64,000 nucleotides of DNA from an uncultured delta proteobacterium (GCA_963789265.1 CAWBKB010000001.1:1120001-1184000), one strand, 5' to 3'; shown: positions 7,674 to 63,856, counted from the first letter of the stretch. The notes: generated by a model from the letters alone, not told the origin. Numbers and translations: made by a program.

Positions 7674-7818
7674 GTGCAGCGTTTCATAAATACGGTGCCA
7701 CTTGCACAGACACCCACGACCCCGCGTCCCGCGGGGAGGCCGGTCCTACCGGAAGAGGGCTCCGGCTACAGGCATTATGTATGGAATAATACGTGACCGG
7801 ACTTATGAAAGAGAGTGA
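7674..7818. mobile_element. MITE-like element (second copy at 32420-32591)
   Basis: Imperfect terminal inverted repeats (tttcataaatacggt / accggacttatgaaa), flanked by CTAA on both sides, with high similarity to 32420-32591. Confidence 0.7.
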
Positions 7819-8165
7819 CTAAGTGATTCTCGGACAAGTTGCGAGTCAAATTTCGAGCTGAGATAGCCGGCCCCAGTGCGGATCGCAGCGATGATGTGGC
7901 TTTTTAATTCATTGGTGCGATTCAACACACACAGTGCCGCTACTGCGCAGAGTTCCCGCTCTCGTTGGGTCAACACATCACGCGCATAGAGATTGCCGAA
8001 CACGTGATTGATGAAATCCGACGGTATGTCAAAGTACCCGAATAGCTCATGGAGCAATTGAGTTCTTGTGCCCCCCACCAGTTTCTTGGACACGTCCGTA
8101 GGGTCGTCACCCGGACGGATGTCCGAAGCAATTGCCGCTTTCGTCTGGTCGTCTGGCATTACCAT
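7803..8165 (-). pseudogene. Carboxymuconolactone decarboxylase (CMD/AhpD-like) family protein, apparently 3'-truncated
   Basis: FGNLYARDVLTQRERELCAVAALCVL..ELKSHIIAAIRTGA is CMD-like; the expected xEEIxE..Y.G.P helix is absent. Confidence 0.6.
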
Positions 8166-8228
8166 AACTGTCTCCTCTACACGCAGTCAGGATTCTTTGT
8201 TAACTTTGTTCACCGGCATATCGAGATT

Positions 8229-9170
8229 TCATACCGGATCAAAAGCCTGTATCTTCTCCAAGTGCTCAAGCATCTTGAGATACCTTTTGTCTCGTTTGAT
8301 AAGGATTTCTTCCTCGGTGCGACCTCCATAGTCGTAAATACCTTTGGACGTCTTTGCGCCGAGTTGGCCTTGTTTCACTTTTTCTTCCACCAGAGGGCTG
8401 ATTCGATCATGGCTCCTCATGATGTCGGCCACGAGGTCGAGGCCCGTGAAATCCACCGATTGCACCACCCCTACGATGGGAAGTCTAATCCCGAGGCTGG
8501 CTTTGACGGCGAAATCGATCTCTTCAGGTGTCGCCCACTCGTTCTCCAACATCTCCCATACGGCTTTTCCGATGCTCCTTTGAATTCGGTTGACAATGAA
8601 GGATGGAACGAATTTTTTCAGCATCAGGGGCTTTTTTCCGATCCTCTTCATCAGTTCTGTAGTGAATGTGACGACCCTTGCATCGGTGTTCGGTCCGGGC
8701 ACCACCTCCACCAAAGGGATTATATGTGGCGGCGCGAACCAGTGGGCGACAATAAGGCGGTCCGGCGATTTTACCCGGGCGATCTCGAAGATATTCAATG
8801 ACGAGGTATTGCTGGCCAGAACAGTATCTTGAGGGCAGATTTCGTCGAGTTGTCTAAACACCTCCCGCTTGATATCAGGCACCTCGCTCACGGCCTCCAG
8901 GACAAAATCCGCTTTTCGTGCCGAGGCAGTCAGATCGGTTGATGTACGTATACGGGCCGTAATCTCCGGTATATCGTTTTCATGCACCCGTCCGAACTCG
9001 GCCAGGGTATGTAAATTAGTCCTTATGAGGGTCGTGGCACGCGTAAGCGCGCGTTCGTTCAGATCTACAAGATCCACTTCAATACCGGCCTGAGCAAAGA
9101 CCTGAGCGATGGAATGCCCCATCACCCCAGCCCCGACTACCAGGACAGTCCCGACATTACCAGCTTCCAT
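8229..9170 (-). CDS. 3-hydroxyacyl-CoA dehydrogenase
   Basis: VVGAGVMG Rossmann motif, EAVSE, ASNTSS, HWFAPP, FIVNRI. Confidence 0.93.
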   Translation of the reverse strand: MEAGNVGTVLVVGAGVMGHSIAQVFAQAGIEVDLVDLNERALTRATTLIRTNLHTLAEFGRVHENDIPEITARIRTSTDLTASARKADFVLEAVSEVPDIKREVFRQLDEICPQDTVLASNTSSLNIFEIARVKSPDRLIVAHWFAPPHIIPLVEVVPGPNTDARVVTFTTELMKRIGKKPLMLKKFVPSFIVNRIQRSIGKAVWEMLENEWATPEEIDFAVKASLGIRLPIVGVVQSVDFTGLDLVADIMRSHDRISPLVEEKVKQGQLGAKTSKGIYDYGGRTEEEILIKRDKRYLKMLEHLEKIQAFDPV

Positions 9171-9301
9171 GACAGCCGCTCCTCCCATTGATATTTCTCC
9201 TATTATGTTTTACCCGACCTTTTGCCGCGTCCGAGTGGATTGCACCCCATTTTGGGGTAAATCGCATCAACGGCTTCTGAGATCCGGCGCAGAGAACCTT
9301 G

Positions 9302-9342
9302 AGAAAGAAGCACCTCCCGCATCGTGCAAGCCGGAAGGTGCT
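9302..9342 (-). terminator. Putative intrinsic terminator
   Basis: agcaccttcc..ggaggtgct stem followed by a U-rich tract on the minus strand, downstream of the 9370 stop. Confidence 0.45.
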
Positions 9343-9369
9343 GAATTCATGGACTCTAATGAAAGTCGG

Positions 9370-10239
9370 TTATTTTTTGTAGCTGTACCAGCCCTCGCCC
9401 GTCTTCTGGCCGAGTTTACCTTCAGTAACCTTTTTCACAATGCTGGGAGTCGGAAGGTCCGCCCTGTCGCCGGTTTCATAGAAGTGGCTCATCCCGATGT
9501 CATAGCTCAGGTCGATACCCGTCAGATCCATGAGGCGGAACGGGCCCATGGGATGGCCGGCGCCGTAGACGCAAGCTTTGTCTATATCCTCATAAGAGGC
9601 CACGCCCATTTCGAGCATCCACATGGCTTCTTTCGAAATAGCCGCGACAATTCGGTTCAGGACGAAACCGTCCACTTCTTTCTTGATCAGGATGGGCACT
9701 TTGTCGATCTTCAGACAAAAGTCCATCATGCATTGCGCGGTTTCATCTGAGACATGGGGACCTTGGACCACTTCGACGAGCTTCATGACCAGCGCGGGGT
9801 TGAAGAAATGGAGATTGCAGACCTGGGAAGGACGATTGGTAACATCGACGATACGGGAACTTACAATGAAAGAACTGTTCGTGGCCAGAATGGCTTTCGG
9901 TGGAGTGAACTTATCCAGATCGGCAAAGACTTTCCGCTTCAGATCGATTCTTTCCAGGACCGCCTCTATAACCAGGTCGGCATCCTTGACGGCTTCTTTC
10001 AGATCGCCCGTAAACGAAATAAGACTGCGGGCCCTTTTCGCGGCATCTTCCGTCAGCTTCCCCTTTTGAACGCGCCCCGGCAGATAGGTATCGCAAAATT
10101 TCTCCGCTTTTTCGAGCACTTCCGGAACCACGTCGGTGCTGACCGTTTTTAAGCCGTGAAGGGCACACTGCAGCGCGATCTGGTGCCCCATGTTCCCGGC
10201 CCCCACAACAGATACGTTCTTCACTTCATCTATCTTCAT
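9370..10239 (-). CDS. 3-hydroxybutyryl-CoA dehydrogenase family protein
   Basis: GAGNMG, EAVLE, ATNSS, LHFFNP, GFVLNRI, GHPMGPF, GKLGQKTGEGWY. Confidence 0.93.
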   Translation of the reverse strand: MKIDEVKNVSVVGAGNMGHQIALQCALHGLKTVSTDVVPEVLEKAEKFCDTYLPGRVQKGKLTEDAAKRARSLISFTGDLKEAVKDADLVIEAVLERIDLKRKVFADLDKFTPPKAILATNSSFIVSSRIVDVTNRPSQVCNLHFFNPALVMKLVEVVQGPHVSDETAQCMMDFCLKIDKVPILIKKEVDGFVLNRIVAAISKEAMWMLEMGVASYEDIDKACVYGAGHPMGPFRLMDLTGIDLSYDIGMSHFYETGDRADLPTPSIVKKVTEGKLGQKTGEGWYSYKK

Positions 10240-10614
10240 GTTTCACTCTCCTCCCACTTTTCTTTTGGATCTCTGTTTATTGATTCCACCGCTACATAAG
10301 GTCAACGATTTTTTCATGAGACGGCGGCAAAAAGAAACGGAATGTTCAATTTGACAAACCCGCTATATGAATCGAAAGGAGATTGCTAATGAGAGTCAAG
10401 ACGCATCCAAGTGTTAAAAAAAGTGCCTGAATTTGTGCAACATGAATTGCCAGCGGATGAGTTGCAGGGTATAGCCCAGGCACCTGCACTTGTGGCTCCC
10501 GCAATTTGGGTAAATGTCCGCAAGATGAAGTTCAGCCACTAACTTTGGATGCGGATCCAATTAGCCGACGCTTTGGGCGAAAACAGTTAATTTGGCAGGA
10601 TAATGAAGTAATTC

Positions 10615-10661
10615 TGGAGCCGGGGATGGGAGTCGAACCCACGACCTGCTGATTACGAATC
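10615..10661 (-). repeat. Duplicated 3' half of tRNA-Thr (att site)
   Basis: 47 bp identical to 19934-19980, then diverges. Confidence 0.95.
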
Positions 10662-10810
10662 CCGCTATTGTGAGATTTAACAAAACATATTCAGGTACTT
10701 CCCTCTGGACTCCCGTTGCTACCTTCCAGGACAAATCAGGACGATACAGAACCCAATGGCACAAAATTGGCACACCCCGCTCCAGGGCAAAGAGCGCAAC
10801 ATACTTGTTC

Positions 10811-11699
10811 TTAGCCGACCATTTCGCGGATGACTTCTTTCACGGAGAGGATATCCGTCACGAGCCCTGCAATCTGGCCTGCAGGAAGAATACCCAGATC
10901 CACATTCCCCTTGAGCCAGGAATCCTCCATTGTTGGACCGCCGAAGCCCGACATCGCTTCAGTCTCTCCACTTTGAATTCTTTCCGTGAAAGCTGTCTTC
11001 AGCGCCCGAACCTGGAAACGTCCCAAGTTGATGAGTAGGGTCCCCAAGTCCCCTGCTTCAACTATAAGCTTCTTGTAATTGTCGTGCGCGATGCATTCCT
11101 TTGTGGCGATGAACCTCGTTCCCACTTGCACCCCTTCAGCTCCAAGGGCCATGGCTGCCCTGTACGCCCTAGAGTCCGCTATGCCTCCCGCAGCGATTAC
11201 CGGAACCTTGACCTTGTCCACAACCGCTGGAACAAGAACCATTGTTGATGGTCCTCCAAAGCCCTGTACACCACCTGATTCACTCCCTTCTGCCACTATG
11301 GCATCCGCTCCCAGTGCTTCCGCCTTGGAGGCAGAATCGGCGGTCGGTACAACGACCAGAGCTTTGATCCCATGCTCTCGGAGAAACGGAATGATTTGCT
11401 TTGGAGATCCTCCGGATACAGTCACCGCGCTGAATGCCTTCCTCAGCCATCACCGCACCAAATTCCAATACCTTGGGGTTCATGGCAAAGAGGTTTGCAC
11501 CAAAGGGTTTGTTGGTAAGCGCCTTGGTGGATCGCACCTGATCACGTACAGCTTCCGCGTCAGTCGCGAAAGCCGTTGCGAGGAGTCCGTAGCCGCCTGC
11601 CTCGGAAACCGCAGCCACGAGCTCTGGATTGCAAATCACTCCCATGGCGCCCTGAATGACTGGATACTTCACGCCTAATAGTTCAGACACACGCGACAT
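10811..11699 (-). CDS. Nitronate monooxygenase/FabK-family flavoprotein (one +1 frameshift near 11430)
   Basis: YPVIQGAMG..VAAVSEAGGYG..PFGANL in one frame; AEGSESGG, AAGGIADS, GVQVGTRF in the next. Confidence 0.88.
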
Positions 11700-11874
11700 T
11701 GCTCTTTGCCTCCATTTGAGCGCGGAAATGACGGATCGATCATGGATCAGATGACTGGGCTACAACAGGTACTTTGATGCCACAGATTAACTGTCGCCAA
11801 ATCTCACTTACCCGAGAAGCCATCAGGAGAGGTTTTTGCCGTGAAAAGGACCGACCTGCATCCCTCTGGGTTCC

Positions 11875-12441
11875 TCACATGAACTTATGAGCAAATTTCA
11901 CGGCCTCAGCCTTGATTTCCTGGCCCATGGCATCAGGTGTGGTCGTAAAGGGTATTACAAGGGTTCCAGGGACGCTGCATTTCGTGTACTCCATTAGCCT
12001 GTTGAACATCTTCATCACGAGGTCCGCGTTTTCTTCGATAGGACCCGCGCACGTTACCAGAAGCCCAGCCTTTTTTCCTTCAAGGAGGGACTTCCATTTA
12101 GGAGTACCGTAATCTGTAACAAGACAGAAACAACGGTCTATCAACGGCTTGATTTGCGAAGAGAAGCCCCAGCAAAAGAGTGGTGAAGCCAATAGAATGA
12201 CGTCAGAAGCTATTAGTCGCTCAAAGATTTCCTTCGCGTCATCCTCTTGAGGACAGCCCGGCTCGTCGGGAATGCCTTGACACGTGTAGCATTCTTGGCA
12301 GCCATTCACCTTTTTATCTATTATATTGATATGATCGACGAAGTGACCGTTCGCCCGCAGTTCTTCCTCCCCCCACCCTAGAACCTTTGCCGTGTTGCCC
12401 TTTTTCGGGCGCGGACTTCCCAACACGCTCACAATCCTCAT
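11875..12441 (-). CDS. Flavodoxin-fold protein (iron-sulfur flavoprotein / NADPH-dependent FMN reductase)
   Basis: GSPRPKKGNT, CQECYTC..C Cys cluster, ASPLF, KPLIDR. Confidence 0.9.
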   Translation of the reverse strand: MRIVSVLGSPRPKKGNTAKVLGWGEEELRANGHFVDHINIIDKKVNGCQECYTCQGIPDEPGCPQEDDAKEIFERLIASDVILLASPLFCWGFSSQIKPLIDRCFCLVTDYGTPKWKSLLEGKKAGLLVTCAGPIEENADLVMKMFNRLMEYTKCSVPGTLVIPFTTTPDAMGQEIKAEAVKFAHKFM

Positions 12442-12885
12442 TTTTGCCTCCTCCATCAACGAAACAGTGAATTTTAGGCCATTTTCTTAGAGTCAGATTG
12501 GTGGTCACGTCGTGCAGAATTTTCCCTTCGTGAAGATCGCGATTTATCTGTACCAAGAATTATGCACCGGTTTGGCCACTTCAATGTTTCTTCTGCCGGG
12601 AACCGGACGTAACATCCTTGCTTGGACATCGAAAAGGGTTCCCATTTCCTCGCCTGATCGTCAGAAGCAAAATTCTCACGATGGTGCCTAAAAGCTAATT
12701 TTATCTTCTGCTTGAGCATACCTCACCGTACGCCAAGCGGTCAATCTGTATATTACTCCTTGTGTCCGGTTCACGAAAATGGCTCCTGATTTGATTGTAC
12801 GAAGCCCGAGAATGTGTGCTGTCCTTTCAGCCAGAGCACTAAATATCAAGCACTTGACTCTGAAGGTTCAGAGAGATTGAAGCCT

Positions 12886-12984
12886 TTAGCGAAGAATGCC
12901 CTCCAGAATACTGGGTTCAACAAACAGAAGGATGACTATCAATATGATAGCGAACATGAAGATCTCGGAAACGATTCCGTTCAT
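12886..12984 (-). CDS. Putative 32-aa single-pass membrane peptide
   Basis: MNGIVSEIFMFAIILIVILLFVEPSILEGILR with upstream GAGG; below ORF-track cutoff. Confidence 0.45.
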   Translation of the reverse strand: MNGIVSEIFMFAIILIVILLFVEPSILEGILR

Positions 12985-13548
12985 GGCAAACCTCTTCGCG
13001 TTCAATTGATTCATTCTTTTTAAGTACTTGGACTAGAAATTTTGTGATCCGTTAAAAAGATGACGAGTCGGGATGAGCTGGAAACGGTCGGATTCCGAGA
13101 TTTGAGATGTACTGGGCTTGGATATGAGTGAGGCAACAAGCAATCCTGGAAAAGGGGTCATACACTTGCCGAGAACTGCGGAATCAGGCTCCCGTTCGGG
13201 TTCAAACATTAGCCTTTTCGGCAACAAGCGGCCACATTTGCAAACAAATATTGAAATATGAAAAATCACCCATAGCAGCTTTCCCCTGCCTCTTTCAGAA
13301 AGTCGCTCAGAATTGATTCTGCGAAGCCTCAGTTTCGATTTGACCGCCCGCTGGATTCCGGGTATCGTCTGCCTTCGTTGCAATGCATTCAGGAAATCCA
13401 GATCATCGCCACCCTGCTGGTGGAGTGGAATTTCTCTGCCTTGGGGGCCTCTCGGGAATGGCAGAACCGATCCTGCGGCCGGTCATTGGCCCAAGGCCGC
13501 AGAAATGGCAAGACCGCCGCATAATTCAGAATAAAATCGGAGGTTCTC

Positions 13549-13854
13549 ATGTTAACGATAGTTGCCTTCGCTCAAGCGAAACCCGGTAAAGAAAAGGATC
13601 TTGAAAAAGCTCTTCTGGAACTAGTTTCCCATACTAGGAAAGAAGCGGCCTGCATCAATTATGATCTCCATCGGCACCTCAACAAACCGGGTATGTTCGT
13701 GTTCTATGAAAATTGGATTGATAAAGCCGGCCTGGAGCAACACGGCAAATCACAACATATTGCGGATTTCAAAACAAAAGCGGGCGACCTGCTGGCAGAA
13801 CCGCTTAAAATCGAATTGTGCGAAATGGTGTCTCAGCAGGTCTCTAAGAAATGA
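13549..13854 (+). CDS. ABM-family putative quinol monooxygenase
   Basis: AKPGKE..TRKEAACINYDLH..FVFYENW..H; RBS GGAGG. Confidence 0.9.
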   Translation: MLTIVAFAQAKPGKEKDLEKALLELVSHTRKEAACINYDLHRHLNKPGMFVFYENWIDKAGLEQHGKSQHIADFKTKAGDLLAEPLKIELCEMVSQQVSKK

Positions 13855-14001
13855 GGAACGGAGTTTGACCTAGGACCCTTGGGAAAGGTATCCAGATCAA
13901 CAGCCTTTTGTGCTACCACCGGTGGCTTTCTTTGCACTTTCGCTGTTTCTTGCGTCACGGGATAGTGGAACATAACAAAAGAGAGAGCCGGACCAAGCCA
14001 A

Positions 14002-14196
14002 CTAATGCTTTCTTTCTGGGTTTGGGAAGCTGGAAGAACAGGGCGGGCTAATCGTGGCCGTGTGATCCGAAATTATGACAAGGGTTCTTGTCTTAAGGGA
14101 TCGTCTCATCCCACCTTGCGTGGAGCACTTGAATATCCTTGCAAGTTCCTCATCGCTTATCGTTTGGCCTGGCGAAAGGCCGTGTTCAAGTAGCAT
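14002..14196 (-). pseudogene. N-terminal stump of an SRA-like domain/HNH endonuclease
   Basis: IFKCSTQGGMRRSLKTRTLVIISDHT matches my recollection of that family N-terminus; homology stops after about 46 aa; start overlaps NUDIX stop. Confidence 0.6.
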
Positions 14197-14578
14197 GATG
14201 GGTCCTCCTCAATTTATGAACAAATGGTAAATCAGCGGGAACAAACTCGTAGTTCTCCAGTTCCTCAAATGAGACCCACCTGCTACTTTCGTGATCCGTT
14301 AATGACATTTCTCCGCCTGTCCAATCGACTACGTATGCAAGAAGCCTGATGGACCCATGCTTGTAATGATAAATGCTTTCACCAAAGAACTCCTGAACAG
14401 ACACCTCTATGCCAAACTCTTCTCTCATTTCACGCGCCAGGCACTCCTGGGGCGTCTCTCCATTTTCCAATTTCCCGCCTGGAAATTCCCACAAGTATTC
14501 AAGCTGCTTTCCGGCTTTCCGCTGGCCGATAAAGACCTTACGGTTCTGAATAAGGATGGCCGCGGTCACCGTCTGCAT
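14186..14578 (-). CDS. MutT/NudG-like NUDIX (d)NTP pyrophosphohydrolase
   Basis: WEFPGGKLENGETPQECLAREMREEFG Nudix box; PAD motif. Confidence 0.95.
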   Translation of the reverse strand: MQTVTAAILIQNRKVFIGQRKAGKQLEYLWEFPGGKLENGETPQECLAREMREEFGIEVSVQEFFGESIYHYKHGSIRLLAYVVDWTGGEMSLTDHESSRWVSFEELENYEFVPADLPFVHKLRRTHHAT

Positions 14579-14706
14579 GGCTTGTTACGTCCTATTTGCT
14601 TCAAATGGGTTTGGACTCTCGGGCACTCTTCTACTTAGGATGCAGCCCCTGGCCAAGACGGTGCAGCATGTTAGCCGGTTCTGTCCCAGCGTTTTGAAAC
14701 AGGGGA

Positions 14707-15817
14707 TCACATGAACTTGTCCCTGAAAGCCCGCTGTTTCTCCAACGTCCATCGGACACAAAAAGCTGGTTTCCCTTTCATCACGATCTTAGTACACGCA
14801 TTGCACGAGTCGCACTGCAAAATTTCTTTGTCCCGCCCATCCATCACCTTTTGAGGCCATTCGGGATCAGTCCAGAGCACTCTGGCAAGTCCGATGAGAT
14901 CTGCACACCCATCGGCAACTATCTGTTCTGCCAACTCTCCCGTTACAATGAGGCCAGCAGTTACGATAGGAATTTCCACTTCCTTCTTTATCGCAGCCGC
15001 CAACTCAACCATGTAGCCCGGCCTTGTCGATCTTTCGATGATTTCTGGTAGGATAAAGGACTCATACGTGCCACCCATAACAGAAAGGTATGCCACTCCA
15101 AGATCGGAGAGCGTGCGAGCGAAAACAGAGGATTCTTCCAACTTCAAGCCATCGGGCAGCCATTCATCAGCCAGGAAACGGTATCCCACGGGGAAATTAC
15201 CGACGGCTTTCTTGACCTTGGTCACAACCTCCAATGCAAATCTTTGCCGCTTCTCAAAGGTGCCACCATACTCATCTTGTCTTTTGTTCGTTCTTGGGGA
15301 GAGAAACTGTGCGAGCAGGTACCCAGTACCTCCGTGCAATTCTACCAGGTCGAACCCCGCCTTCTTCACTCGGACAGCGGCATCGACGTACTTATCTTGG
15401 ATTTCTCTAATTTCTGCAACGGTCAAAGCTCTCGCCATGCGACCAAACGTATTTACGGGAGAAGGTGCAACTGGCTCCGGGATGCCGGCAAACCGCCCTG
15501 CGTGATTGATCTGCAAACAAGCCTGCGCTCCTTGCTCTTTGATCGTATCAGCCAAAAGTCTAAGCCCGTCCAGATTGTCATCGGTATCGGACCGAATGGT
15601 CCGACTGGAGCCGCTGCCCAAGTTGAAATCGATGGTGGAATTTTCCACAACCACTAGCGCAACACCACTTTGGGCCATGAGTCTATAATGATCGAGGAGC
15701 AGTTCGGTGACTGTCCCGCCGTAGCCAGCATATCCTAGGGTAAAGAGGCGGCATTATCAGTCGGTTCTTGAATTTCAAGCCGCCGATTTCCAAGGATTCG
15801 AAAAGATGGGAATACAT
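14707..15817 (-). CDS. NADH:flavin oxidoreductase (Old Yellow Enzyme family); +1 frameshift at 15738-15740
   Basis: MYSHLFESLEIGGLKFKNRLIMPP joins LGYAG..LQINHAGR..AGFDLVELHG..GYLLAQFLSPRTNKRQDEYGG if one G of GGG is removed. Confidence 0.9.
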
Positions 15818-15886
15818 GAGCTGTTCCTTTCGAAAGGGAAGCGTCTACTCACGATTTCTGGACTGCATTTTCGGTCACAGGATCAT

Positions 15887-19919: not shown

Positions 19920-19933
19920 CCTCTTGGTTTTAT

Positions 19934-20009
19934 TGGAGCCGGGGATGGGAGTCGAACCCACGACCTGCTGATTACGAATCAGCTGCTCTGGCCTCTGAGC
20001 TACCCCGGC
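19934..20009 (-). tRNA. tRNA-Thr(CGT)
   Basis: 76 nt GCCGGGGTAGCTCAG..GCTGA-TTCGTAA-TCAGC..GGTTCGACTCC..CCCCGGCTCCA, with encoded CCA. Confidence 0.97.
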
Positions 20010-20096
20010 CTTCTTGAATCATACAGAGAAGGATTCAAAAATAGAATAAACTTCGGCCGCGTGTCAATGTTTTGCTGCACCCGTCCTGAGATCCTG

Positions 20097-20927: not shown

Positions 20928-20977
20928 TTTATTGCGGATTGCGGGCTCCCTTCAAAATTGTGCGGCAGCTTCAAAAT

Positions 20978-26357: not shown

Positions 26358-26545
26358 TTATACCATTTCGCTTTCGAACAAGTGACACGTCTTTCCAGTG
26401 GGACAGACATCCTGCCTGTCGTCAAGCCCGCGGACGCGGCTGTAGGGGCGAATGGCATTCGCCCTGGGCGGTCCCGCGTTCCGCGCGGGGTGCCTCACCA
26501 TGTCTTGTCCACGATGGTTACTTGTTTGATAGCGCATTAGTATTT
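26358..26545. mobile_element. MITE-like element carrying REP-like palindromes
   Basis: Imperfect ~29-bp terminal IRs (ataccatttcgctttcgaacaagtgac / gttacttgtttgatagcgcattagtat); same left end at 35297, 62726, 63453. Confidence 0.65.
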
Positions 26546-32419: not shown

Positions 32420-32591
32420 GTACAGCGTTTCACAAATACGGTGCCACGCGCACAGTAGGACCGGCTTCCGTGCCGGGCACTGACACCCACGACCCCGCGT
32501 CCCGCGGGGAGGCCGGTCCTACCGGAAGCGGGTCAGGTCTTCGAGCATCATCCACGTCAAAATATGTGACCGAACTTATGAAAGGGAGTAC
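32420..32591. mobile_element. MITE-like element (longer copy of 7674-7818)
   Basis: Same ends and body; contains gtaggaccggc..gccggtcctac REP pair. Confidence 0.7.
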
Positions 32592-41901: not shown

Positions 41902-42120
41902 AGCCCACTCCAGTGTATGTATTTGACGGGATGCTTACGCGGACAGAGCGGGGGAGGATGTCGAGTCTTCAAAGAATGGGTTAAGGGTAAGAAGTATAAA
42001 CTGCGTGCCGATTACCCAAAGAACGACGTATATATGTACTCCGCCGAATGGCTATCCAGGGCTGCCGCCCGCATCCCGGTTGTAAGGCGAAAAGCAACGA
42101 GTGATCAGGCGATTTGAAGA

Positions 42121-42300
42121 AATCCCCCGCAAGCAGCCGTGCAGACAGAACTTTTGAACCTGGTTACCCAGGTGGGACCCTATCGACTGCTTCAGGCTTC
42201 CTGCTTCAGGGCAGGCATGCTCACCACAGCCGGGGGCGGTTCCCATTTTTTGAGTGTTGGCTCAAAAAATTGCTGTCTATCACGCACTGCGCAGGGGATT
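42121..42300 (-). ncRNA. ssrS: 6S RNA
   Basis: About 180 nt directly downstream of zapA; complementary ends aatcccctgcg / gcgggggatt; gagcc..ggttc inner pairing; canonical zapA-ssrS-rny context. Confidence 0.85.
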
Positions 42301-50762: not shown

Positions 50763-50877
50763 GAATGCTCCGAGTTCGCGATTAGGCCTCGTGTAGGGCG
50801 GCCCGTGGCCGCCGTCCCGCGCCTCGCGGGATCGGGCATGGCCCGACCTACCCGCTCCGCCGACTCTCGAAATTCCC

Positions 50878-52127: not shown

Positions 52128-52179
52128 ATCACTCTCCTTCCCCGATTTCGCTCATCCGGGCCCATGAATAAGAAGCATC

Positions 52180-53767: not shown

Positions 53768-53821
53768 CCTCTTATCCCTCCCGTTGATAGGCGAACACGT
53801 TGTAGGTTCAAAACCATGAGG

Positions 53822-54859: not shown

Positions 54860-55004
54860 CTTGTTTATTCCTGTCGAGCAACGGAATCGCAGTCGGAAGC
54901 CGTTGCAGATCCTTGCGGAAGTGTTGTATCGTGCGACTTTCCCGGAGAAGTCGGCCGATGGCTAATTACTCCTTTTCGCAAATACGGTTTCGTATTCTGG
55001 TACC

Positions 55005-55580
55005 ATAGCCGTCATTCCCGCGCACACGGTCCCGCGAGACGCGGGATGCCGGTTGTTCGCGAAAGGCCGGCAGGAAGAAACTGTCTCAAAACTTCGCATG
55101 GAGTTCAAATCGTGCCACAATCGAGGCTGCGATGTGTTTTGTTTCCCTCACCCCAACCCTCTCCCATAGGGAGAGGGAGCAGGTCCAGAGCAGTTTTACA
55201 CTTCCCTCGCCCTCTGAGAGAGGGACACAGGGTGAGGGATTTTCTCGTTTCTAGTCCCGCGTCTCGCGGGACTGCCTGGGAATGCCTGTCGAGAGGCTCT
55301 GCCTCGACTATGATAGTGAAATGAAGCCAGTTTGCGGGCAGAGCCCGCGAGATATAGGTTCCCAGGCAGAGCCTGGGAACCAGAACCTTATTTCGAAGTG
55401 CGGTGTCCTGTTTCAGGCAGTGATGCCTGTGCTTTCACTCCTATCCGACGTCGTAACCTCGGACTCCGATCCGGAGGTAGGTTGGGCCATGCCCGACGCA
55501 ATACGGCGGCCGCAGGGCGCCCTACGCGATGCCGCGTACGCGGGAATGACGGCAATGGTACCGGAATAGGAGACCGAATT
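55005..55580. repeat. Intergenic mosaic of several REP-like palindrome families
   Basis: gtcattcccgcg..cgcgggaatgac, ccctcacccc..gggtgaggg, gttcccaggcagagcctgggaac and gtaggttgggccatgccc types. Confidence 0.85.
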
Positions 55581-55622
55581 TAGGCATTAGAGAACTAGGT
55601 TGCACCATCACGGGCGCCAATT

Positions 55623-57101
55623 TCAGCGAATGTTGCCCACCCATCCGGAATCCAGGCGATAATTGGGGGCCTCCTTGGTTATCACCACGTCGTGAACATG
55701 AGATTCTTTGAGACCGGCAGGAGTAATCTTCATAAAATGGGCTTTCGCGCGAAGTTCGTCAAGATTGCGAGCCCCCAAGTACCCCATGCCCGCCTTGAGA
55801 CCGCCCACAAGCTGATTGACGGAATGCTCCACAGGCCCTTTTGCCGGAACCATTCCCACTATTCCTTCCGGAACCAATTTGTTTTCCGGCACTCCTTCGT
55901 GCTGGCCATACCGGTCACGGGATCCTTCTCTCATGGCCTCCAGAGATCCCATCCCTCGGTAAGACTTGTAAGAGCGCCCCTGGTAGAGCACCATCTCACC
56001 GGGACTTTCATCTGTTCCTGCAAACAGCCCTCCGATCATGACGGTATGCGCACCCGCTGCGAGGGCTTTGGTGATATCGCCCGAGAATTTGATGCCACCA
56101 TCGGCTATAATTGGAACTCCAAATTCCGAGGCCTTCTTCGCGCACTCCATAATCGCGCTTATCTGAGGCACGCCGACCCCTGCGACGATGCGAGTAGTGC
56201 AAATCGAGCCTGGGCCGACTCCTATCTTTATCCCATCTGCGCCGGCTTTCACGAGATCTTCCACCGCGTCAGCCGTGGCCACGTTGCCGCCAATCACCTG
56301 GACATCGCCGAAATTGCGTTTGATGTCACTGATTGCATCCACGACATTCTTTGAGTGACCGTGTGCGGTATCGACGACGATCACATCGACTCCCCGACGG
56401 ATAAGCGTGGACACTCGTTCTTCTCGGTCAGGGCCTACCCCCACTCCAGCTCCTACGCGCAGGCGGCCGAGCGGGTCCTTTGCCGAATCGGGGAATGTAA
56501 TTGCTTTTTGTATGTCCTTAATGGTGATGAGCCCCTTAAGGCGGTTGTCTTTGTCGACGACCAGCAGTTTTTCGATGCGGTGCTTGTGCAGCAAGGCTTT
56601 GGATTCTTCAATACCGATCTTGTCGTCTACCGTAACCAGGTTCTCACGGGTCATGACCTCCGCAACCTTGAGATCCATGTTTTCCACGAAGCGGAGATCC
56701 CGATTTGTCAGGATGCCTGACAAATAGCCGTTTACGGTAACCGGAACACCTGAAATATGGTACTTCTTCATTATTTGGAGCGCATCCGCTATTTTCTGAT
56801 CGGGATTGATAGTAATGGGATCCACGATCATCCCGGATTCCGACCGCTTCACGCGATCTACTTCTCTAGCCTGATCTTTGATAGCGAGGTTCCGATGGAT
56901 AATCCCGATTCCGCCCTGCCGAGCCAAACTGATAGCCATTTCGGATTCTGTCACTGTGTCCATGGCAGCGCTGATCAGGGGGATGGTGAGGACAATTTCC
57001 CTGGTCAGTCGCGTCAAGACATCGACCTCGGAAGGCAGTATTTCTGAATAACAAGGCATTAGGATTACATCGTCAAAGGTGAGAGACTCGCTAATTACCA
57101 T
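55623..57101 (-). CDS. guaB: IMP dehydrogenase
   Basis: [39 protein letters not shown]. Confidence 0.97.
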
Positions 57102-57244
57102 CCAATTTTCTCCCTCCTAACGTGTGGAATGAATTTCCTTCTCTCGAAGTAAGCGCTCAACATAGTCGCGACTTTCTTCAGGATCAACCGAAACTTTTAG
57201 AGCAATGTCAGCATACAGTCACAGCCGAAATTTGCGGGTGGCTT

Positions 57245-57490
57245 CGTGGGGTGGGCTTTCTAGCCCGCCATTGAACAGGGGTTTCCCCAGGCAGGCAGTC
57301 CCGCGCCTCGCGGGACTGCCTCACAAGACTGAATGGTTACAGAGCATTGTAAGCATCTTTTCTCGTTCTCAAGCTCTGCTTGGGAATGCCTGTCGCGAGG
57401 CTCTGCCTCGACTATGATGGTGAAATAAACCAGTTAACGGGCGGAGCCCGCGAGATTTGGATTCCCAGCGGAGCCTGGGAACCAGAAAAA
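57245..57490. repeat. REP-like cluster; right part is a diverged copy of 55244-55385
   Basis: gtggggtgggctttctagcccgcc type plus ctcgttc..gggaatgcctgtcg..ggctctgcctcgactatgat block. Confidence 0.85.
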
Positions 57491-57515
57491 CTAAACGAGG
57501 TTCGGCTCCCGGTAC

Positions 57516-58427
57516 TTAACGTACCGCAGGCGGGCTCGCCTCGATTGCCCGGGTTTGCTCCAATGCCTTGGTTATTGATCCCGCAACGGAGCTTGTGAAC
57601 AGGCCAAATAAACTTTCCCACTTCTTCTTCGGGTAAACTATTACGGGTTCTGTTTTGATGCCGCCCAGCTTCGCTGCAATCTTTACCGCATCGTAAAAGT
57701 TGCCTATGGTATCCACCAATCCCAACTCTTTGGCCCTCTCGCCCGTAAAGAACCTTCCGTCCGCAATCTCGTGCAGTTTGACTTTGTCTATCTTGCCCTT
57801 GCGACCCGCTGCCACATCGGAAATGAACTGCTCGTGAACTTCAGCCGCGAAATTTTGCAGAATGTTCCTCTCATCGTCGGTCAACGGTCTTACGCCGGTC
57901 CCGAGATCCTTATACTTGCCGGCTTTGATAATGTTCACGTCCACGCCGATCTTTTCGATGACTTTGTGTATTTCGGGCAGCATCATGATGACCCCGATGC
58001 TCCCTGTGATGGTTCCCCGGGAACAGACAATGTTGTTTGTACTGCTTGCTATATAGTAAGCGGCCGACGCTCCCACGGTTTCCATGGAAGCGACAACGGG
58101 CTTTTTCTTCTTAATCTTAACAATTTCTCGATAGATCTCCTGGGCAGGCGCAACCGTACCGCCGGGGGAGTTTATGCGGATCAGAATCGCCTTAATGGAA
58201 GAATTCTTTGAAAATTTGCGCAATTGTTTGAGGGTCTCGTCCGAGGACATGATCGTTCCCCCGATATTTATCACCCCAATCTCATTTCCGACCGCAAATA
58301 CTCGTTCCAATGCGGTACCTTCTATACCTTCATTGGAAACCAGCGAAACTGCCACGAGCACCGCCACAAATCCAGCCACCAGAAAAAGAATAACAAGGAT
58401 GGCTAAGCCGGTCCTCGATTTCTTCAT
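57516..58427 (-). CDS. sppA: Signal peptide peptidase SppA (short form)
   Basis: RINSPGG, ASAAYYIA, TGSIGV, GKYKD, ADGRFFTG..GLVD. Confidence 0.95.
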   Translation of the reverse strand: MKKSRTGLAILVILFLVAGFVAVLVAVSLVSNEGIEGTALERVFAVGNEIGVINIGGTIMSSDETLKQLRKFSKNSSIKAILIRINSPGGTVAPAQEIYREIVKIKKKKPVVASMETVGASAAYYIASSTNNIVCSRGTITGSIGVIMMLPEIHKVIEKIGVDVNIIKAGKYKDLGTGVRPLTDDERNILQNFAAEVHEQFISDVAAGRKGKIDKVKLHEIADGRFFTGERAKELGLVDTIGNFYDAVKIAAKLGGIKTEPVIVYPKKKWESLFGLFTSSVAGSITKALEQTRAIEASPPAVR

Positions 58428-58784
58428 GGTATGTCTCCCCTCTGACCAGACTTCATCAATTTAGCCCAAATATCAAGAAGTTGGCCGATGAATTCCTCAA
58501 AGAATATTAAACGTTAGCAGAATTTTTGGTCCCCCGCAAGCGGTGTGCTTGGGGTGAAATCCCGCGCCTGGCACCTGGGTGCGGCGTGCCCCTGCACGGC
58601 ACTCGACGTACCCGTGCAAGCTCTTAGTAGGATGCGGTGAATTCCGCGGACGCAGAGGAACCGCATCGCTCGCGGTATGACTCGGATGATGCGGTTCCTC
58701 CGCTTTGCCCAGGGTCACCCCATCGCTACGTTACCTTGATCCTTTCCCCCAAAATCATTGACAAAAAAGGCGGAAGACGAACCA

Positions 58785-58892
58785 TTGCCGCGGGTGCAAG
58801 TCATGTTTTATCAGGAAGCGGACGGAACAGTTCCGGTGATGGCCTGGTTGGAGAATCTCCGGCCACAACCAAAGCACCGAGCTAGGTTGTAG
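58785..58892 (+). pseudogene. N-terminal stump of a RelE/HigB (Gp49-like) toxin
   Basis: MPRVQVMFYQEADGTVPVMAWLENL.. from TTG; stop codon supplied by the GTAG of the following REP. Confidence 0.6.
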
Positions 58893-59300
58893 GTCGGCCC
58901 GTGGCCGACGTGGCTCACGCAACCACGGCGGCCACGGGCCGCCCTACCACAGGCGAAAGAGTTTCTGGTAGCTTGTAGGATGCGGTGAATTCCGCATCTT
59001 GCGGGATGAACCGCATCGCTCGGGCCGGTGGGACAGGCATCTTGCCTGTCGTCATGCCCGCGTAAGTGGGCACCGGTAGGACCGGCCTCCGTGCCGGTCA
59101 TTCATTTGCCACCGGCGGGGTTGCGGGACAGGCGTCCCGCCTGTCGACGGGCAAGATGCCCGTCCCACTGCGCTACTACCCGGATCGGAGTCCGGGGTGA
59201 CGAATGGCAGGCAGGATGCCTGCCCCACTATTCTTTATACAGCCATATTCCGCGAATGGTGCGGTGCCTCCGCATTCCCGGGGATCATCACAACATCCTG
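58889..59300. repeat. Dense GTAG/GTGG-type REP cluster
   Basis: gtaggatgcggtgaattccgc (also 58627), gtgggacaggcatcttgcctgtc, gtaggaccggcctccgtgccggtc, ggcaggatgcctgccccac. Confidence 0.85.
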
Positions 59301-59345
59301 CTTGTGGCATACGTCTCCGCGGTAAACGATTGCCTTTTCCTTTAA

Positions 59346-60125
59346 CTACTCCATCGGCATTTCGACAATCCCCAAGCTTCCCTTCAGCCCTTCCGTTTCC
59401 TCGTGTCCGGTCAGTTTCAAGAATGCCTTTTCCAGGTTGCCCTTTGTCCTGGCAATAGTATTCTTTATGTTGGCAGGAGTATCGGAAGCTATGATCTTCC
59501 CCTTGTGAATGATCGTGATCATAGTGCATATCTCTTCAGCAACCCCAAGAGTGTGCGTGGACATAAATACGGCCATCCCATGACTGCGAGCCATCTGCAT
59601 AAACAGGTCCTTCACCAGCCGCACTCCGCGTGGGTCCAATCCCACCATGGGCTCGTCGATTATAAAGATCTTCGGTCGGTGAAGCAGTGCCGCGCTTATG
59701 ATGAGACGTTGCTTCATGCCGTGGGAGTAGCCCTCAATCAATTCATCTTTCCAGTCGGCCAGTTCGAACATCTCGAGGTACTGCATCCCGATCTTCTCCA
59801 GGTGGCCGTTATCCACTCCGTAGATTCCCGCGCTGAACTGAAGAAACTCCCAGCCGGTCAGCTTCTCATAAAGGTATGGCCTGTCGGGAACAAAGCCGGT
59901 GATGGCTTTCGCTTTTTCAGGCTCCTTTGCCAGGTCGTAGCCGCCCAGGATTATGGTCCCCGCGTCGGGCTTCATCAGGCCTGCCAGCATGCGGATCGTG
60001 GTGGTCTTGCCGGCGCCGTTCGGCCCTAGGAATCCCATCACTTCACAGGGTGGCACATGAAGCCCTATTTGGTCTACGGCAAGTGTCTTGCCAAACCTCT
60101 TTGTCAGGTTTTCGATATGAATCAT
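59346..60125 (-). CDS. ABC transporter ATP-binding protein
   Basis: GPNGAGKTT, YSHGMKQR, IIDEP, STH. Confidence 0.95.
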   Translation of the reverse strand: MIHIENLTKRFGKTLAVDQIGLHVPPCEVMGFLGPNGAGKTTTIRMLAGLMKPDAGTIILGGYDLAKEPEKAKAITGFVPDRPYLYEKLTGWEFLQFSAGIYGVDNGHLEKIGMQYLEMFELADWKDELIEGYSHGMKQRLIISAALLHRPKIFIIDEPMVGLDPRGVRLVKDLFMQMARSHGMAVFMSTHTLGVAEEICTMITIIHKGKIIASDTPANIKNTIARTKGNLEKAFLKLTGHEETEGLKGSLGIVEMPME

Positions 60126-60157
60126 CTTATGTAACCATTCAGCGGGCCTCAAGATTC

Positions 60158-60346
60158 ATCGCAGAGTCCGCAGAGAACGCAGAGATAAAAAGCTTATTCA
60201 ATGCCGAGTCGGTCATCGCGCGTACAGTCGGGCAGTCATTGCCTTTCCCGCGTCGCGAGATCACGTATCGCAATCTGCCTTGCCCTAAGTGCACAGACGT
60301 TCTGAACAAACACTATTCTCTGCGGTCTCCGCGTTCTCCGCGGTGA
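60158..60346. repeat. Inverted pair of short cgcagag-type repeats (related pair at about 24321-24500)
   Basis: cgcagagtccgcagagaacgcagag .. ctctgcggtctccgcgttctccgcggtg. Confidence 0.65.
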
Positions 60347-60392
60347 ACCATGTCCATGTTATTTCAAATCATCTCGTAACGCATCTGTTCCA

Positions 60393-61883
60393 CTATTTTA
60401 TCTCCAAAACCTTCAGTCGCAGTCGCCCAAGGAAAGATACGACGTTCACGTGTTTATCCACATCGCCATAAAGGAGAGTCACGTACGAAGGGGTCACGGG
60501 TAGCTTGTTCCTAAGCGGATCTCCCGTGAACCATCTCTTTCCTGCCCAGTATGCAGCCCATGCATGATAGTAAAAACCACCATCGGCATAAATCAATCCA
60601 ACTGCCATTTTAGCCGGAAGCCCAATCGCTCTCGCAAGCGACACCGCCAGAATAGCATGCTCCTGGCAAGCCCCTTGCTTTGTCTGCAACACTGTGTACG
60701 CATCCGGAACCGAAGCAGTCGGGACCTTTTTCAAATACTTGAACACCCACTGGTTGATGAGCTCTGCCGCCTTGATCGGATTATTTTCGCCGCCCACAAT
60801 TTTCCGAGCCGTTTGAATTATCTCCGGGTTGTCGCTCCTAAGAAAACGAGAAGTGGCCAGAAAGGGCTCCATTGCTGGATCTTTGCAGGGCAGGGTATAT
60901 GTGGCCTTCGGGAGAGTTTCCCTCGTGATCACGATATCGGAGCCTTTCCATGATTGCCGGAAATCATCGCTTGGAACCGCCCAGTCCTTGCTGCCCTGCA
61001 TACGCAACCGAACCAGCTTGAGATCGTCTCTGTCGGGAATGGAGCCTTCAAGAGGGACCGCAGCCAAAGAGATCATGTCAGGGAGTTCGCGAGTCGCATG
61101 CATCTCCCGCATGATATCGGCCTTGTCCGAGCGTGTGACCGTGATCCCCAGCGGCATGCGCCCTTTCAGCAGACGACCCTGGTCATCTATCCACGAAGTG
61201 AGTTCCAAGTTGCGCAAAGAGGCGTGTACTTGCCAGGCTTGCACTTTCTTTCCCGCCACTTCCAGGTCCGCTTTTTCCAAAACTTTAATGGTCGCGTTCC
61301 ATTTGTGCCCATCCAAAGGATCGAAGATCGGGAGTCGAATCTCCTCGCCGACATGTAAGCCTGTGAGCGGAACCGGCAATCCCAACGACCTTGATATTCG
61401 GGGCCTTTCGTAAAGTTTCAGCCGCTTGACCCCTCCACCCTTGGAGGCCGGCATTTCAAGGATCAGATCTCTGCCCTCCATGTGGCCCTTCTGCTCGAAT
61501 GAAATGATGCCGGACGACACTTTCAAATGAAAGGATATCAGCCGGAAGTTTGTGTCCAGGGTGGAGTGGGTGAAGATTCGAACCGGCTTTATCTGACCTT
61601 GAAGGTTCAAGGAGATGTTCAATTCGTCTCGCAGCGTCCATTGGTCGCGATTTCGGAATTGCCTGGAACGACCAAAGCCTGCGTAGGAGCCTCCGATTCG
61701 AATGAGAAACCAGTCATCTGTTTCAGCCCGCGAAATCTGGAAGTTCTCTGTGATTTCCGAGCTTCCACCGGGAAGGTAGCGGTCCGCGAGGAGCATGCCC
61801 AAGAGTACAAGCCAGACGCCCACAATTGCGGCCGTCAACAAAGGACTAAAACGAGATCCTGAATGTCGTGACAAACCGAACAT
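60393..61883 (-). CDS. Transglutaminase-like domain protein with N-terminal membrane anchor
   Basis: GACQEHA..RAIGLPA..YHAW..DP catalytic triad pattern. Confidence 0.9.
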   Translation of the reverse strand: MFGLSRHSGSRFSPLLTAAIVGVWLVLLGMLLADRYLPGGSSEITENFQISRAETDDWFLIRIGGSYAGFGRSRQFRNRDQWTLRDELNISLNLQGQIKPVRIFTHSTLDTNFRLISFHLKVSSGIISFEQKGHMEGRDLILEMPASKGGGVKRLKLYERPRISRSLGLPVPLTGLHVGEEIRLPIFDPLDGHKWNATIKVLEKADLEVAGKKVQAWQVHASLRNLELTSWIDDQGRLLKGRMPLGITVTRSDKADIMREMHATRELPDMISLAAVPLEGSIPDRDDLKLVRLRMQGSKDWAVPSDDFRQSWKGSDIVITRETLPKATYTLPCKDPAMEPFLATSRFLRSDNPEIIQTARKIVGGENNPIKAAELINQWVFKYLKKVPTASVPDAYTVLQTKQGACQEHAILAVSLARAIGLPAKMAVGLIYADGGFYYHAWAAYWAGKRWFTGDPLRNKLPVTPSYVTLLYGDVDKHVNVVSFLGRLRLKVLEIK

Positions 61884-61978
61884 AAGCTATTGAACCAACT
61901 TGCTGTAAAAATATGCACGTGCGGCGGCTTGCGGAAGGCCCTTTATCAGGGCAACAATTGCCGTGCGCCGATTAGTTT

Positions 61979-62638
61979 TCACACGAAACGACCCTTGAGT
62001 GTTTTAAAGAGATCTTCGTTATTCTTCAAAACTTGTCCCGCTTTGGCTTCAGTCATGCCGGCACCCAACAAGATTCTCAAGGCAGATTCACGGGTTATGA
62101 GATCGTCGGGGTCATGGGCGTCAGTGTCAACTACCAGTCGAGCGCCCTGATCAAATGCGGTAGTCGCCACATGGCCGTTGGTAATACTATGGCCCGCTCT
62201 GGCAGTAATTTCCAGAAAGACACCCTTATCCGCGGCCAGCCGTGCCTCAGTGGGGCTGATAAATCCAGGATGGGCAAGTATGTCCGCGCCGGCCTCGATT
62301 CCGGCAAGATTTGTCCCTGATGCCACGGGTTCGACGGGAGATTCACCGTGCACCACAACGAATACTGCTCCGAGCCTTCTCGCTTGGCCAACCAGTTCCG
62401 CAATTTGGCCCGGGGGCGCGTGCGTGATTTCGATCCCGGGGATCACGAATGTCTCTTGAAATCGATTCAGATCGCCGGCAACCTTGACTATCCTTGGGAC
62501 AATCCAATCCAAGTTGGATCCGTCCGCATGGTCCGTCAGACCAATGGCTCGATAACCGATATTGCAGGCCCTGCGCACCAATTCGCTTGGAACAAGAGCT
62601 CCGTCGCTCAAAATGCTGTGAGTGTGAAAGTCAATCAC
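61979..62638 (-). CDS. PHP-domain phosphoesterase
   Basis: DFHTHS..SDG, TDH, HGE, AHPG, DTDAH. Confidence 0.92.
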   Translation of the reverse strand: MIDFHTHSILSDGALVPSELVRRACNIGYRAIGLTDHADGSNLDWIVPRIVKVAGDLNRFQETFVIPGIEITHAPPGQIAELVGQARRLGAVFVVVHGESPVEPVASGTNLAGIEAGADILAHPGFISPTEARLAADKGVFLEITARAGHSITNGHVATTAFDQGARLVVDTDAHDPDDLITRESALRILLGAGMTEAKAGQVLKNNEDLFKTLKGRFV

Positions 62639-62785
62639 GTTCGCCTCCGTTGGTGCGATCTAATCTCACAAGCGGCTGATATTTCGCAATATTCTGTTAC
62701 GTCTTGTCGAGGCGTGACTTTGGTTGAGACCGATTCGCTTTCAAGCAAGTGATACCGAGTTTCCGGTAGGGGCGGGTTTCAAACC

Positions 62786-62959
62786 CAATGCTGTTGACTT
62801 AAGCCGCATGCCCCTTGTCCAGGAACTTTACCTTCGACGGGCCTTCACCTCGTCATTCCGGCGGAGGCCGGAATCCAGGTTTTCCTAATCTCCCCTGGAC
62901 CCCGGCCTTCGCCGGGGTGACGGTGGGGTAGACGGAGGTCCCTTAAGTCAACAGCATTG
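62786..62959. mobile_element. 174-bp MITE with perfect 18-bp TIRs and 11-bp target duplication
   Basis: caatgctgttgacttaag / cttaagtcaacagcattg; ggtttcaaacc at 62775-62785 and 62960-62970. Confidence 0.9.
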
Positions 62960-63856
62960 GGTTTCAAACCCGCCCTTACATGTCGGCGTGCTCGCGCACG
63001 CGGTAATCAAGACAAGGTGTGTGGGGCGGACTTTCCAGCCCGCCGTTTTCCGTCATTCCCGCGCTCGTGGTCCCGCGTTTTGCAGGGTAAATTGGACAAA
63101 ACTTTTGGCAACTACTATAACTATTCTATTGCGTCTTATCGAGGCATGATTTTGGTTGAGACACTACGTTGACTCGTGCCTCTACAGGATACATGGACGT
63201 GGCAAAAACTCCAAGCGCACATCAGCCTCTCTCGTACAGTCTTTGGTTTGGAGTGGCCGAAGCGTGTGGATGCGAGGAGCAACGCGACAGGTCCCGCGAA
63301 GCGCGGGACTGCCCCTGGCGGGAAAGGGCAAGGTGAGCGGGATTTTTGAGCAGATCCTCCGCTCTTATTTTAACACCTACTCCCGTTCGCGCGAATCGAG
63401 TAGGGCGGCCCGCGGCCGCCGCATTGCTTCGGGCATGGCCCAACCTACCTCCTGATGCTGATTCGCTTTCAAACGAGTGACACCGTGCTCTCAGTGGGAC
63501 AGGCATCTTGCCTGTCGTCATGCCCGCGTACGCGGGCATCCAGACTGGTCCTCGGATCGAAGTCCGGGGTGACGAATGGTCGGCAACATGCCCGGCCACG
63601 GAAACGAGGCTGGACGACGCCGTCAAAAATCTCTTTCAATAGCCTCAGTTTTATTCTAAGATCGGCTCCAATGGCGAAGTCTTGGTCTTGCCAATTCCGA
63701 AATGAAGCTGAGGTGAATCCAACCCTATCCCTGCCGGCATTGATCTTGCCGCAGGTTCGGGGCCACAGGTGTAAGTGAAGCTTGCCGCGATTGATCTGAT
63801 GAAACTCATACTGATGACTTGCATGGACGCATAGCGTTAAAGCGATTCGACAGGCG

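Follow-up and report, generated by a model that had tools for sequence, protein, structure and literature searches.

Among described elements, the small dispersed repeats (SDRs) of cyanobacteria appear, when compared by description, to be the nearest behavioural precedent for the one reported here, a 17-nt hairpin that we call the cassette (consensus T-CCCGCG-YYY-CGCGGG-A, with a 7-bp stem and a 3-nt pyrimidine loop) and that occurs seven times in a 64,000-nt stretch of DNA from an uncultured delta proteobacterium (C1:1120001-1184000, hereafter the window). In 2008, Elhai et al. reportedly described SDRs as hairpin-forming and as lying inside larger repeats (miniature inverted-repeat transposable elements, MITEs), without the usual lengthening of the target. 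SDR5, as portrayed in the available parts of two papers, is 21 nt long, is associated with or inserted at highly iterated palindrome (HIP1) sites, and is found in only a few heterocystous cyanobacteria (PMC5861425, PMC13756078). The available part of the 2018 paper gives ultra-small repeats that enter other repeats as known only from the Nostocaceae (PMC5861425), and SDR function is still called unknown in the corresponding part of a 2026 paper (PMC13756078). As far as those texts go, SDR4-6 of the Nostocaceae and the cassette are alike in being ultra-short, dispersed, regarded as mobile, and of unknown function; they differ in residing in cyanobacteria versus a Thermodesulfobacteriota-type genome, in their length (21 versus 17 nt), and in the relation of the cassette sequence to the repeats described next. 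Nesting and filled and empty states, which are reported for SDRs of about 21-27 nt, are seen for the 17-nt cassette in this genome. An origin from cyanobacteria or HIP1 was considered and rejected, as GCGATCGC has only 110 copies in the genome.

The sequence of the cassette resembles that of a second system. The Neisseria Transformation Sequence (NTS), CGTCATTCCCGCGMAVGCGGGAATCYRG, is a hairpin bound by SsnA, a single-domain GIY-YIG nuclease that cuts upstream of it and acts on single-stranded DNA (ssDNA) only; the flanks of the NTS are crucial for SsnA, and the gene is laid out as NTS-ssnA-NTS (Chenal et al. 2025, PMC11893778, in its available part). NTS and the wider group of Ssn-related motifs (SRMs) share with the cassette the core ...TCCCGCG..GCGGGA..., an extragenic location, and a copy number in the hundreds. 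Unlike NTS, the cassette has no conserved directional flanks (190 loop-3 copies), has a loop of three pyrimidines, is nested in other repeats, and has a copy number that does not track the presence of an Ssn homolog; the available part of PMC11893778 describes neither insertion nor replacement for NTS. The genome does contain a sister class with the same stem and a loop of 2 nt (66 copies), which corresponds to the NTS consensus complete with its long conserved flanks (CGTCAT... upstream and ...ATCYRG downstream). To judge from these sequences, the cassette is the bare SRM core hairpin with a different loop and without flanks.

Two further kinds of repeat invite comparison. dRS3 is a 20-bp inverted repeat (ATTCCC-N8-GGGAAT) that bounds RS elements of >100 families in arrays and that has been proposed as a site for a recombinase or for phage integration (PMC1797815, available part). 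Like the dRS3 repeats of the intergenic mosaic elements found in neisseriae (NIMEs), the cassette is an inverted repeat of about 20 bp among many short repeat families, in intergenic mosaic arrays that vary between close relatives; however, the terminal hexamers differ, dRS3 bounds RS elements whereas the cassette is internal to hosts that have contiguous empty counterparts, and no IS110-type link was found for the cassette. Repetitive extragenic palindromes (REPs) are palindromes of 20-40 bp, one end of which bears a conserved tag, GTAG or CGTC (PMC3733652, available part). REPs and their doublets (REPINs) are short, extragenic, palindromic, and of high copy number (PMC3116915, PMC3733652, both in part), as is the cassette, but the cassette lacks the GTAG/CGTC tag, does not form REPIN doublets, and flanks no gene for a REP-associated tyrosine transposase (RAYT). 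It parasitises REPs, which are its main hosts, and is not itself a REP. A literature search for palindromic intergenic repeats in Desulfomonil* gave no relevant description. The preliminary description of this DNA knew of no described system with this signature. That claim does not stand, because the hairpin core is already known from the NTS/SRM and dRS3 repeats, and SDRs of cyanobacteria and dRS3/NIME of neisseriae precede the cassette as its closest parallels; the cassette is not a new category but a family of SDR-like nested mini-repeats built on an NTS/dRS3-type hairpin. Its interest is that SDR-like behaviour recurs in a phylum far from the cyanobacteria, where the unit ends sharply at 17 nt, is found in dozens of recipient contexts, and differs in situ between sister species. 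We consider it likely that the cassette is a discrete 17-nt hairpin family, a repeat within repeats, that spreads on two levels.

A discrete unit that replaces short stretches of other repeats

The seven matches of CCCGCGNNNCGCGGG in the window (at 7721, 32494, 50816, 55031, 55256, 57300, and 63293) compare with none in 100 dinucleotide-preserving shuffles of the same DNA, and all seven of the 17-mers previously listed are present, as is a degenerate copy. Their loops are all-pyrimidine on one strand, as the preliminary description had noticed, two copies close with C..G and the other five with T..A (Table 1), and all seven lie between called ORFs, which were annotated with Pfam. Across this genome of sulfate-reducer type (6.06 Mb in nine contigs, 52.5% G+C) there are 190 exact copies, making the cassette the commonest of all 6-3-6 hairpins (the runner-up has 115), while arm-swapped and backwards control hairpins have 0-1 exact copies and all controls together range from 0 to 3. 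Copies with one mismatch number 236 (15-19 in controls) and those with two mismatches 489 (180-366 in controls), corresponding to a family of about 500 or more members that has decayed by about one change per 12 stem bases. The genome-wide count against a null model that had been called for is therefore above chance. With 54-123 further copies in each of six independently assembled congeners, the probability that chance, compositional bias, or an assembly artefact produced the family is virtually nil.

Conservation is confined to R-T-CCCGCG-YYY-CGCGGG-A-Y: in the 190 copies, information content is about zero beyond positions -2/+16, and the cassette is thus a discrete unit. The loop is all-pyrimidine (all-purine when read from the opposite strand) in 173/190 copies, with differences among loops being transitions only, and the closing pair is Watson-Crick in 174/190. 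A second sister class (77 copies) has the same stem with a loop of 5 nt and represents a CG-slippage form.

A functional hairpin under selection, which might bind a protein, act as a terminator, or stabilise RNA by its stem, would fit the retention of the exact stem and closing pair in several genera. It would also fit the strongly extragenic placement of the copies, of which 19/190 fall in ORFs of at least 150 aa and 52/190 in ORFs of at least 100 aa, the latter spanning 80% of the genome. We nevertheless regard it as very improbable, because no T-run follows the hairpin, the spacers that carry copies (99 co-directional, 35 divergent, and 35 convergent) match the expectation from spacer length, transcription runs with the loop strand about as often as against it (48:51), and no Rfam family covers the cassette sites at the gathering threshold. 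Copies moreover decay, and orthologous copies decay or vanish. A terminator or other RNA element was rejected on the first four of these grounds. From the counts in the mismatch classes we infer that individual copies decay like neutral DNA. Perfect copies are at the same time continually renewed across genera, and this renewal speaks for active copying and not for selection on each copy.

Nearly all copies are nested. By BLAST with ±100-bp flanks, 173/190 lie within larger repeats that have site-spanning paralogs, compared with 99/400 random intergenic sites, and 169 copies have paralogs in which the exact motif is lacking. Clustering gave 77 groups of left flanks and 81 of right flanks, which combine into 120 joint contexts, and the hosts are many unrelated repeat families, in agreement with what had been proposed from the window. 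Three kinds of host can be told apart: REP hairpins and REPINs of the GTAG type, hairpin repeats bracketing small GIY-YIG genes, and a MITE-like element of ~142 bp. The pyrimidine loop can occur both ways round at the same site of the same host. The occurrence of TCT and AGA loops in one host gave rise to the idea that the loop is inherited from the host hairpin, which was rejected as filled and empty loops differ elsewhere.

We assembled 832 filled/empty paralog pairs, derived from 112/190 copies and requiring at least 20/25 matching bases in each flank. The modal boundary is exactly 17 nt, from the T to the A (272 pairs), and the replaced host stretch measures 5, 6, 7, or 8 nt in 103, 75, 142, and 74 pairs, respectively, with longer ones also seen; these pair counts are not independent, being swollen by large families, which weighs against leaning on them, and the number of contexts is the safer figure. 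Exact 17-nt swaps occur in 19 distinct flank-hexamer contexts, or 52 under a looser filter. No target duplication was found at the filled sites of the paralog pairs across the 19 contexts. The cassette thus replaces host bases without target duplication, unlike elements that move by DDE transposition, and both this replacement and the ultra-short, discrete nature of the element bear out the preliminary description. Three filled/empty pairs that it had singled out in the window are real: CATTGCT in the REPIN at 63400-63448 takes the place of the hairpin in 50793-50851, AGCTC in a repeat at ~57357 that of the hairpin at ~55240, and the reverse-strand REP at 59076-59100 is the empty counterpart of the host at 7718. 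The terminal inverted repeats with target-site duplication and the full-length gain that define a MITE were not found for the cassette, at which mostly 5-8 host nt are removed and nothing is duplicated. The replaced stretch starts with C in 13/19 contexts and ends with G in 14/19.

Could the hairpin instead be a recombination joint, an existing site at which a recombinase or illegitimate recombination swaps repeat modules to the left and right, so that nothing is ever inserted? The repeats of this genome are indeed mosaics of hairpin modules, one right-flank cluster (39 copies) is joined to many left-flank clusters, the 120 joint contexts are drawn from 77 x 81 clusters, and in neisseriae dRS3 hairpins stand in NIME arrays between >100 RS families, for which a recombinase has been hypothesised (PMC1797815, available part). 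Module exchange would, however, leave no empty counterparts of the kind seen here, where the 112 copies just described have paralogs with contiguous flanks that differ only in a short stretch and the swap is exact to 17 nt in so many pairs. Both flanks are also kept in orthologous filled/empty pairs, and the ends of five IS110-family copies do not abut half-cassettes. We therefore think a recombination joint unlikely. An IS110 family targeting the hairpin was rejected as a candidate for the same reason, its five copies belonging to two families.

Turnover between species and lineage distribution

To follow the cassette between species we compared 47 loci around 50 cassette sites of the sister species G001, in which the flanking genes are ~90% identical to those of this genome. 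Orthologous flanks were not found here for 17 of the 50 sites; at 10 the whole repeat unit is missing here, and at 18 the spacer here carries other sequence. The same host repeat copy is present in both genomes at the remaining five. Of these, one holds a cassette in both species (with one mismatch here), three hold it in G001 but have CGCAATATGG, CAGAG, or CCAAGGG in its place here and are thus empty, and one is complex. Filled and empty alleles at orthologous sites, which had been suggested as a check, therefore exist. At locus L021, where CGCAATATGG stands here, the orthologous spacer of G003-G006 has no REPIN, and REPIN paralogs in G006 and G003 are empty, so that a gain of the cassette in the G001 lineage is the parsimonious reading. 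A second filled/empty pair (L240) gives no polarity, its spacer not being conserved in G002-G006.

The window gives the same picture from the other side. For the copies at 32494, 50816, 55031, 55256, and 57300, the blocks that carry them are missing from G001 or much shorter there; the comparison covers these five of the seven copies. The ~165-bp block around 32493 is absent from the orthologous G001 spacer, and the matches flanking it abut in G002 and G006 too. The spacer holding the REPIN at 50793-50851 measures ~300 bp here and ~70 bp in G001. The MITE-like element at 57209-57350 has an imperfect 9-bp direct repeat at its sides, and the orthologous G001 site is without the element; paralogs of this ~142-bp element mostly bear the cassette, while a few have GGAAAGC in its place. 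Changes in copy number thus consist mostly of whole host repeats coming and going, with a smaller stream of in-place changes of the cassette. The preliminary description had missed this hitch-hiking on host repeats, by which most copies spread.

The cassette is lineage-restricted. All six congeners have it in abundance, among the family's other genera it occurs patchily (0, 0, 0, 0, 1, 4, 10, 20, 20, 34, 109, and 120 copies), and genomes of the neighbouring family of the class have 0-1. At 20 loci in each of two other genera and at 116 public loci found with the TCC-loop 17-mer, the unit has unchanged boundaries and occupies other, genome-specific host repeats. Public records with several copies bear the labels Desulfomonilaceae, Thermodesulfobacteriota, or "delta proteobacterium" (metagenome-assembled genomes), and the organism of the window may accordingly be a member of the Desulfomonilaceae. 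Three DNA runs from one study (available as contigs, with at most 0.30 of words) yielded no joints and no informative bridging pieces.

How the cassette may be written, and candidate enzymes

In the two-level reading, the first step would be an occasional writing of the 17 nt into a fresh site, which nearly always lies in some other intergenic repeat, be it a REP or REPIN, an Ssn-type hairpin repeat, or a MITE, with a short host stretch, mostly of 5-10 nt, being replaced without target duplication. In the second, the filled host repeat multiplies or vanishes as a whole, which is the source of most copies. The loop varies by transitions only and can invert. The primary writing might, and we propose this with low confidence, be a structure-guided reaction on ssDNA performed by a host-encoded hairpin enzyme. 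Of the candidates present, only RAYT-type HUH transposases can both cut and rejoin ssDNA; a cut by Ssn followed by repair, or template switching, could serve in their place. A bolder claim, which we regard as doubtful, would make the cassette the smallest genuinely mobile unit, moved in trans by a hairpin-specific ssDNA enzyme (a RAYT-type HUH protein, or an Ssn-type GIY-YIG nuclease plus repair) in a "loop replacement" transposition. If true, this would be a transposition mode described for no element, in a second, independent SDR-like lineage after the Nostocaceae.

No dedicated enzyme would be needed if, while a host repeat replicates or transposes, a polymerase stalled at a structured repeat copied the hairpin from another repeat and returned. 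Such templated patch repair or template switching would be expected to leave replacements without target duplication and to prefer structured repeats strongly as recipients, as observed, and the loop inversion seen between orthologous copies is a change typical of template switching within a hairpin. But switching at microhomologies should vary the ends, whereas the 17-nt boundaries are identical in 19 contexts with mutually non-homologous flanks, and flanks of a donor were never seen carried along. We judge this explanation to be quite unlikely.

Several observations weigh against the two-level reading, or at least against its enzymatic part. In DNA folds of the empty counterparts, the replaced stretches are not preferentially unpaired (mean fraction 0.46, against 0.44 for all windows), and placement in a terminal loop is only modestly enriched (7/52 contexts, against 5.2% of control windows). 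Pairing does not continue from the cassette stem into the host: of 8 flanking positions, 2.47 are paired, compared with 2.59 ± 0.10 after shuffling. A search for strand bias along contigs and for doublet spacing among 183 adjacent pairs found neither, and hence no bias of an ssDNA type. Loops differ between host families, which is a misfit with a single master copy unless the loop mutates or inverts fast. Polarity is weak: it could be deduced for one case only, and gene conversion may have emptied a filled copy in the other filled/empty pairs. The preliminary description had suggested looking for an HUH nuclease or GIY-YIG gene that accompanies the motif, and no specific link emerged: none of the six Y1_Tnp loci has a cassette copy within 1.5 kb, and among 31 related genomes Y1_Tnp (27/31), GIY-YIG (29/31), and the Ssn homolog (13/31) do not track copy number. 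In four congeners with 64-123 copies (G001, G002, G004, and G006), no homolog of the Ssn-like protein (P0001) was found, several of the genomes being 76-88% complete, while G012 encodes a 63% homolog of P0001 and has no cassette copy. The fold and flank-pairing results led us to reject the idea that the cassette always sits at the tip of a longer hairpin. A RAYT link was likewise rejected from the Y1_Tnp loci and the 31 genomes, and over the same genomes neither GIY-YIG nor the Ssn homolog was found to co-occur with the cassette.

Two genes of the genome (C3:99581-100036 and C7:408822-409436) qualify as RAYT genes by NCBIfam, their scores exceeding its cut-off for that family. Each of them is flanked by tandem GTAG-type REPs (GTAGGACCGGCATCTTGCCGGT and GTAGGACAGGCTTCCAGCCTGTC), which are among the cassette hosts, making two REPtron-like loci. 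A pair of near-identical genes (C4:127748-128857 and C1:91569-92627; ~350-370 aa) encodes a weak Y1_Tnp domain with a long C-terminal extension and has no cassette or obvious REP alongside.

A 97-aa single-domain GIY-YIG gene (C7:415058-415348) carries repeats on both sides that agree letter for letter with the NTS consensus, which has six strict matches genome-wide. By sequence, the gene and its repeats correspond to an Ssn/NTS system in a Thermodesulfobacteriota-type genome. The encoded protein matched no NCBIfam family and gave only a weak match in the PDB (1zg2, E = 0.0067). Three other small GIY-YIG genes (C7:55855-56133, C5:170672-170953, and C7:413404-413685), one of which has an in-frame stop, are bracketed by GTCATTGCGAG...GAAGCAATC repeats with GTCATTGCGAGCGAAGCGAAGCAATC-type hairpins, a repeat family that includes TGTCATTGCGAG, with 161 copies the commonest 12-mer genome-wide; the three genes and their repeats are probably a second Ssn/SRM pair. 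Of the five small GIY-YIG genes, two stand in a 3.1-kb region that holds five loop-3 copies, one of them an NTS variant, and the remaining three have no loop-3 copy within 3 kb. The repeats that directly bracket these genes are of the NTS or GTCATTGCGAG type and not the cassette. A pattern search of the flanks of Ssn homologs in 10 other genomes found no CCCGCG-type hairpin except for one weak match.

The core shared with an Ssn-recognised motif would provide concrete candidates (Ssn and RAYT) and substrates for the biochemistry of how a mini-element is written. It also bears on annotation: REP/REPIN and SRM families are chimeric in these genomes, and clustering them by sequence without masking the nested cassette will therefore produce false splits or mergers of families.

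Features of the window

Table 1. Cassette copies, their hosts and empty counterparts, and related hairpins in the window.
Feature	Position	Strand	Remarks
Cassette	7720..7736		C..G, loop TCC; inside GTAG-type REP, right flank GAGGCCGGTCCTAC
Loop-5 variant	26472..26490		CCCGCG-TTCCG-CGCGGG; CG-slippage form of cassette
Cassette	32493..32509		C..G, loop TCC; in ~165-bp repeat block
Filled REPIN	50793..50851		Two inverted GTAG-type REPs with cassette in between
Cassette	50815..50831		T..A, loop CCT; centre of REPIN 50793-50851
Cassette	55030..55046		T..A, loop AGA (+ strand); in 764-bp asd/guaB spacer
Cassette	55255..55271		T..A, loop TCT; host repeat has empty sister at ~57357-57487
MITE-like host	57209..57350		~142 bp; between guaB and S49 peptidase gene
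Cassette	57299..57315		T..A, loop CCT; within MITE-like element
Empty sister of 55255 host repeat	~57357..57487 (approximate ends)		Present and also empty in G001
Empty GTAG-type REP hairpin	59076..59100	-	Sister of host at 7718
Decayed cassette	63071..63087		Right arm TGCAGG, loop TTT
Cassette	63292..63308		T..A, loop AAG (+ strand); left flank unique, right flank repeated
Empty sister REPIN	63400..63448		CATTGCT (63422-63428) at cassette position of 50793-50851
Ssn-related motif, NTS-like	63516..63543	-	CGTCATGCCCGCGTACGCGGGCATCCAG on + strand as printed; cassette stem, long conserved flanks

At the gathering threshold, the only Rfam matches in the window are 6S RNA (42120-42300, minus strand, 124 bits) and one tRNA (19937-20009, minus strand). 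The asd/guaB spacer (54860-55622) consists of stacked repeats over its 764 bp; its counterpart is ~18 bp long in the closest sister genome and ~90-130 bp long in four further ones. The decayed cassette at 63071-63087 has an intact counterpart in G001 (contig C63, locus L047) in which the loop is inverted (GAA versus TTT), as if the spacer of the palindrome had flipped.

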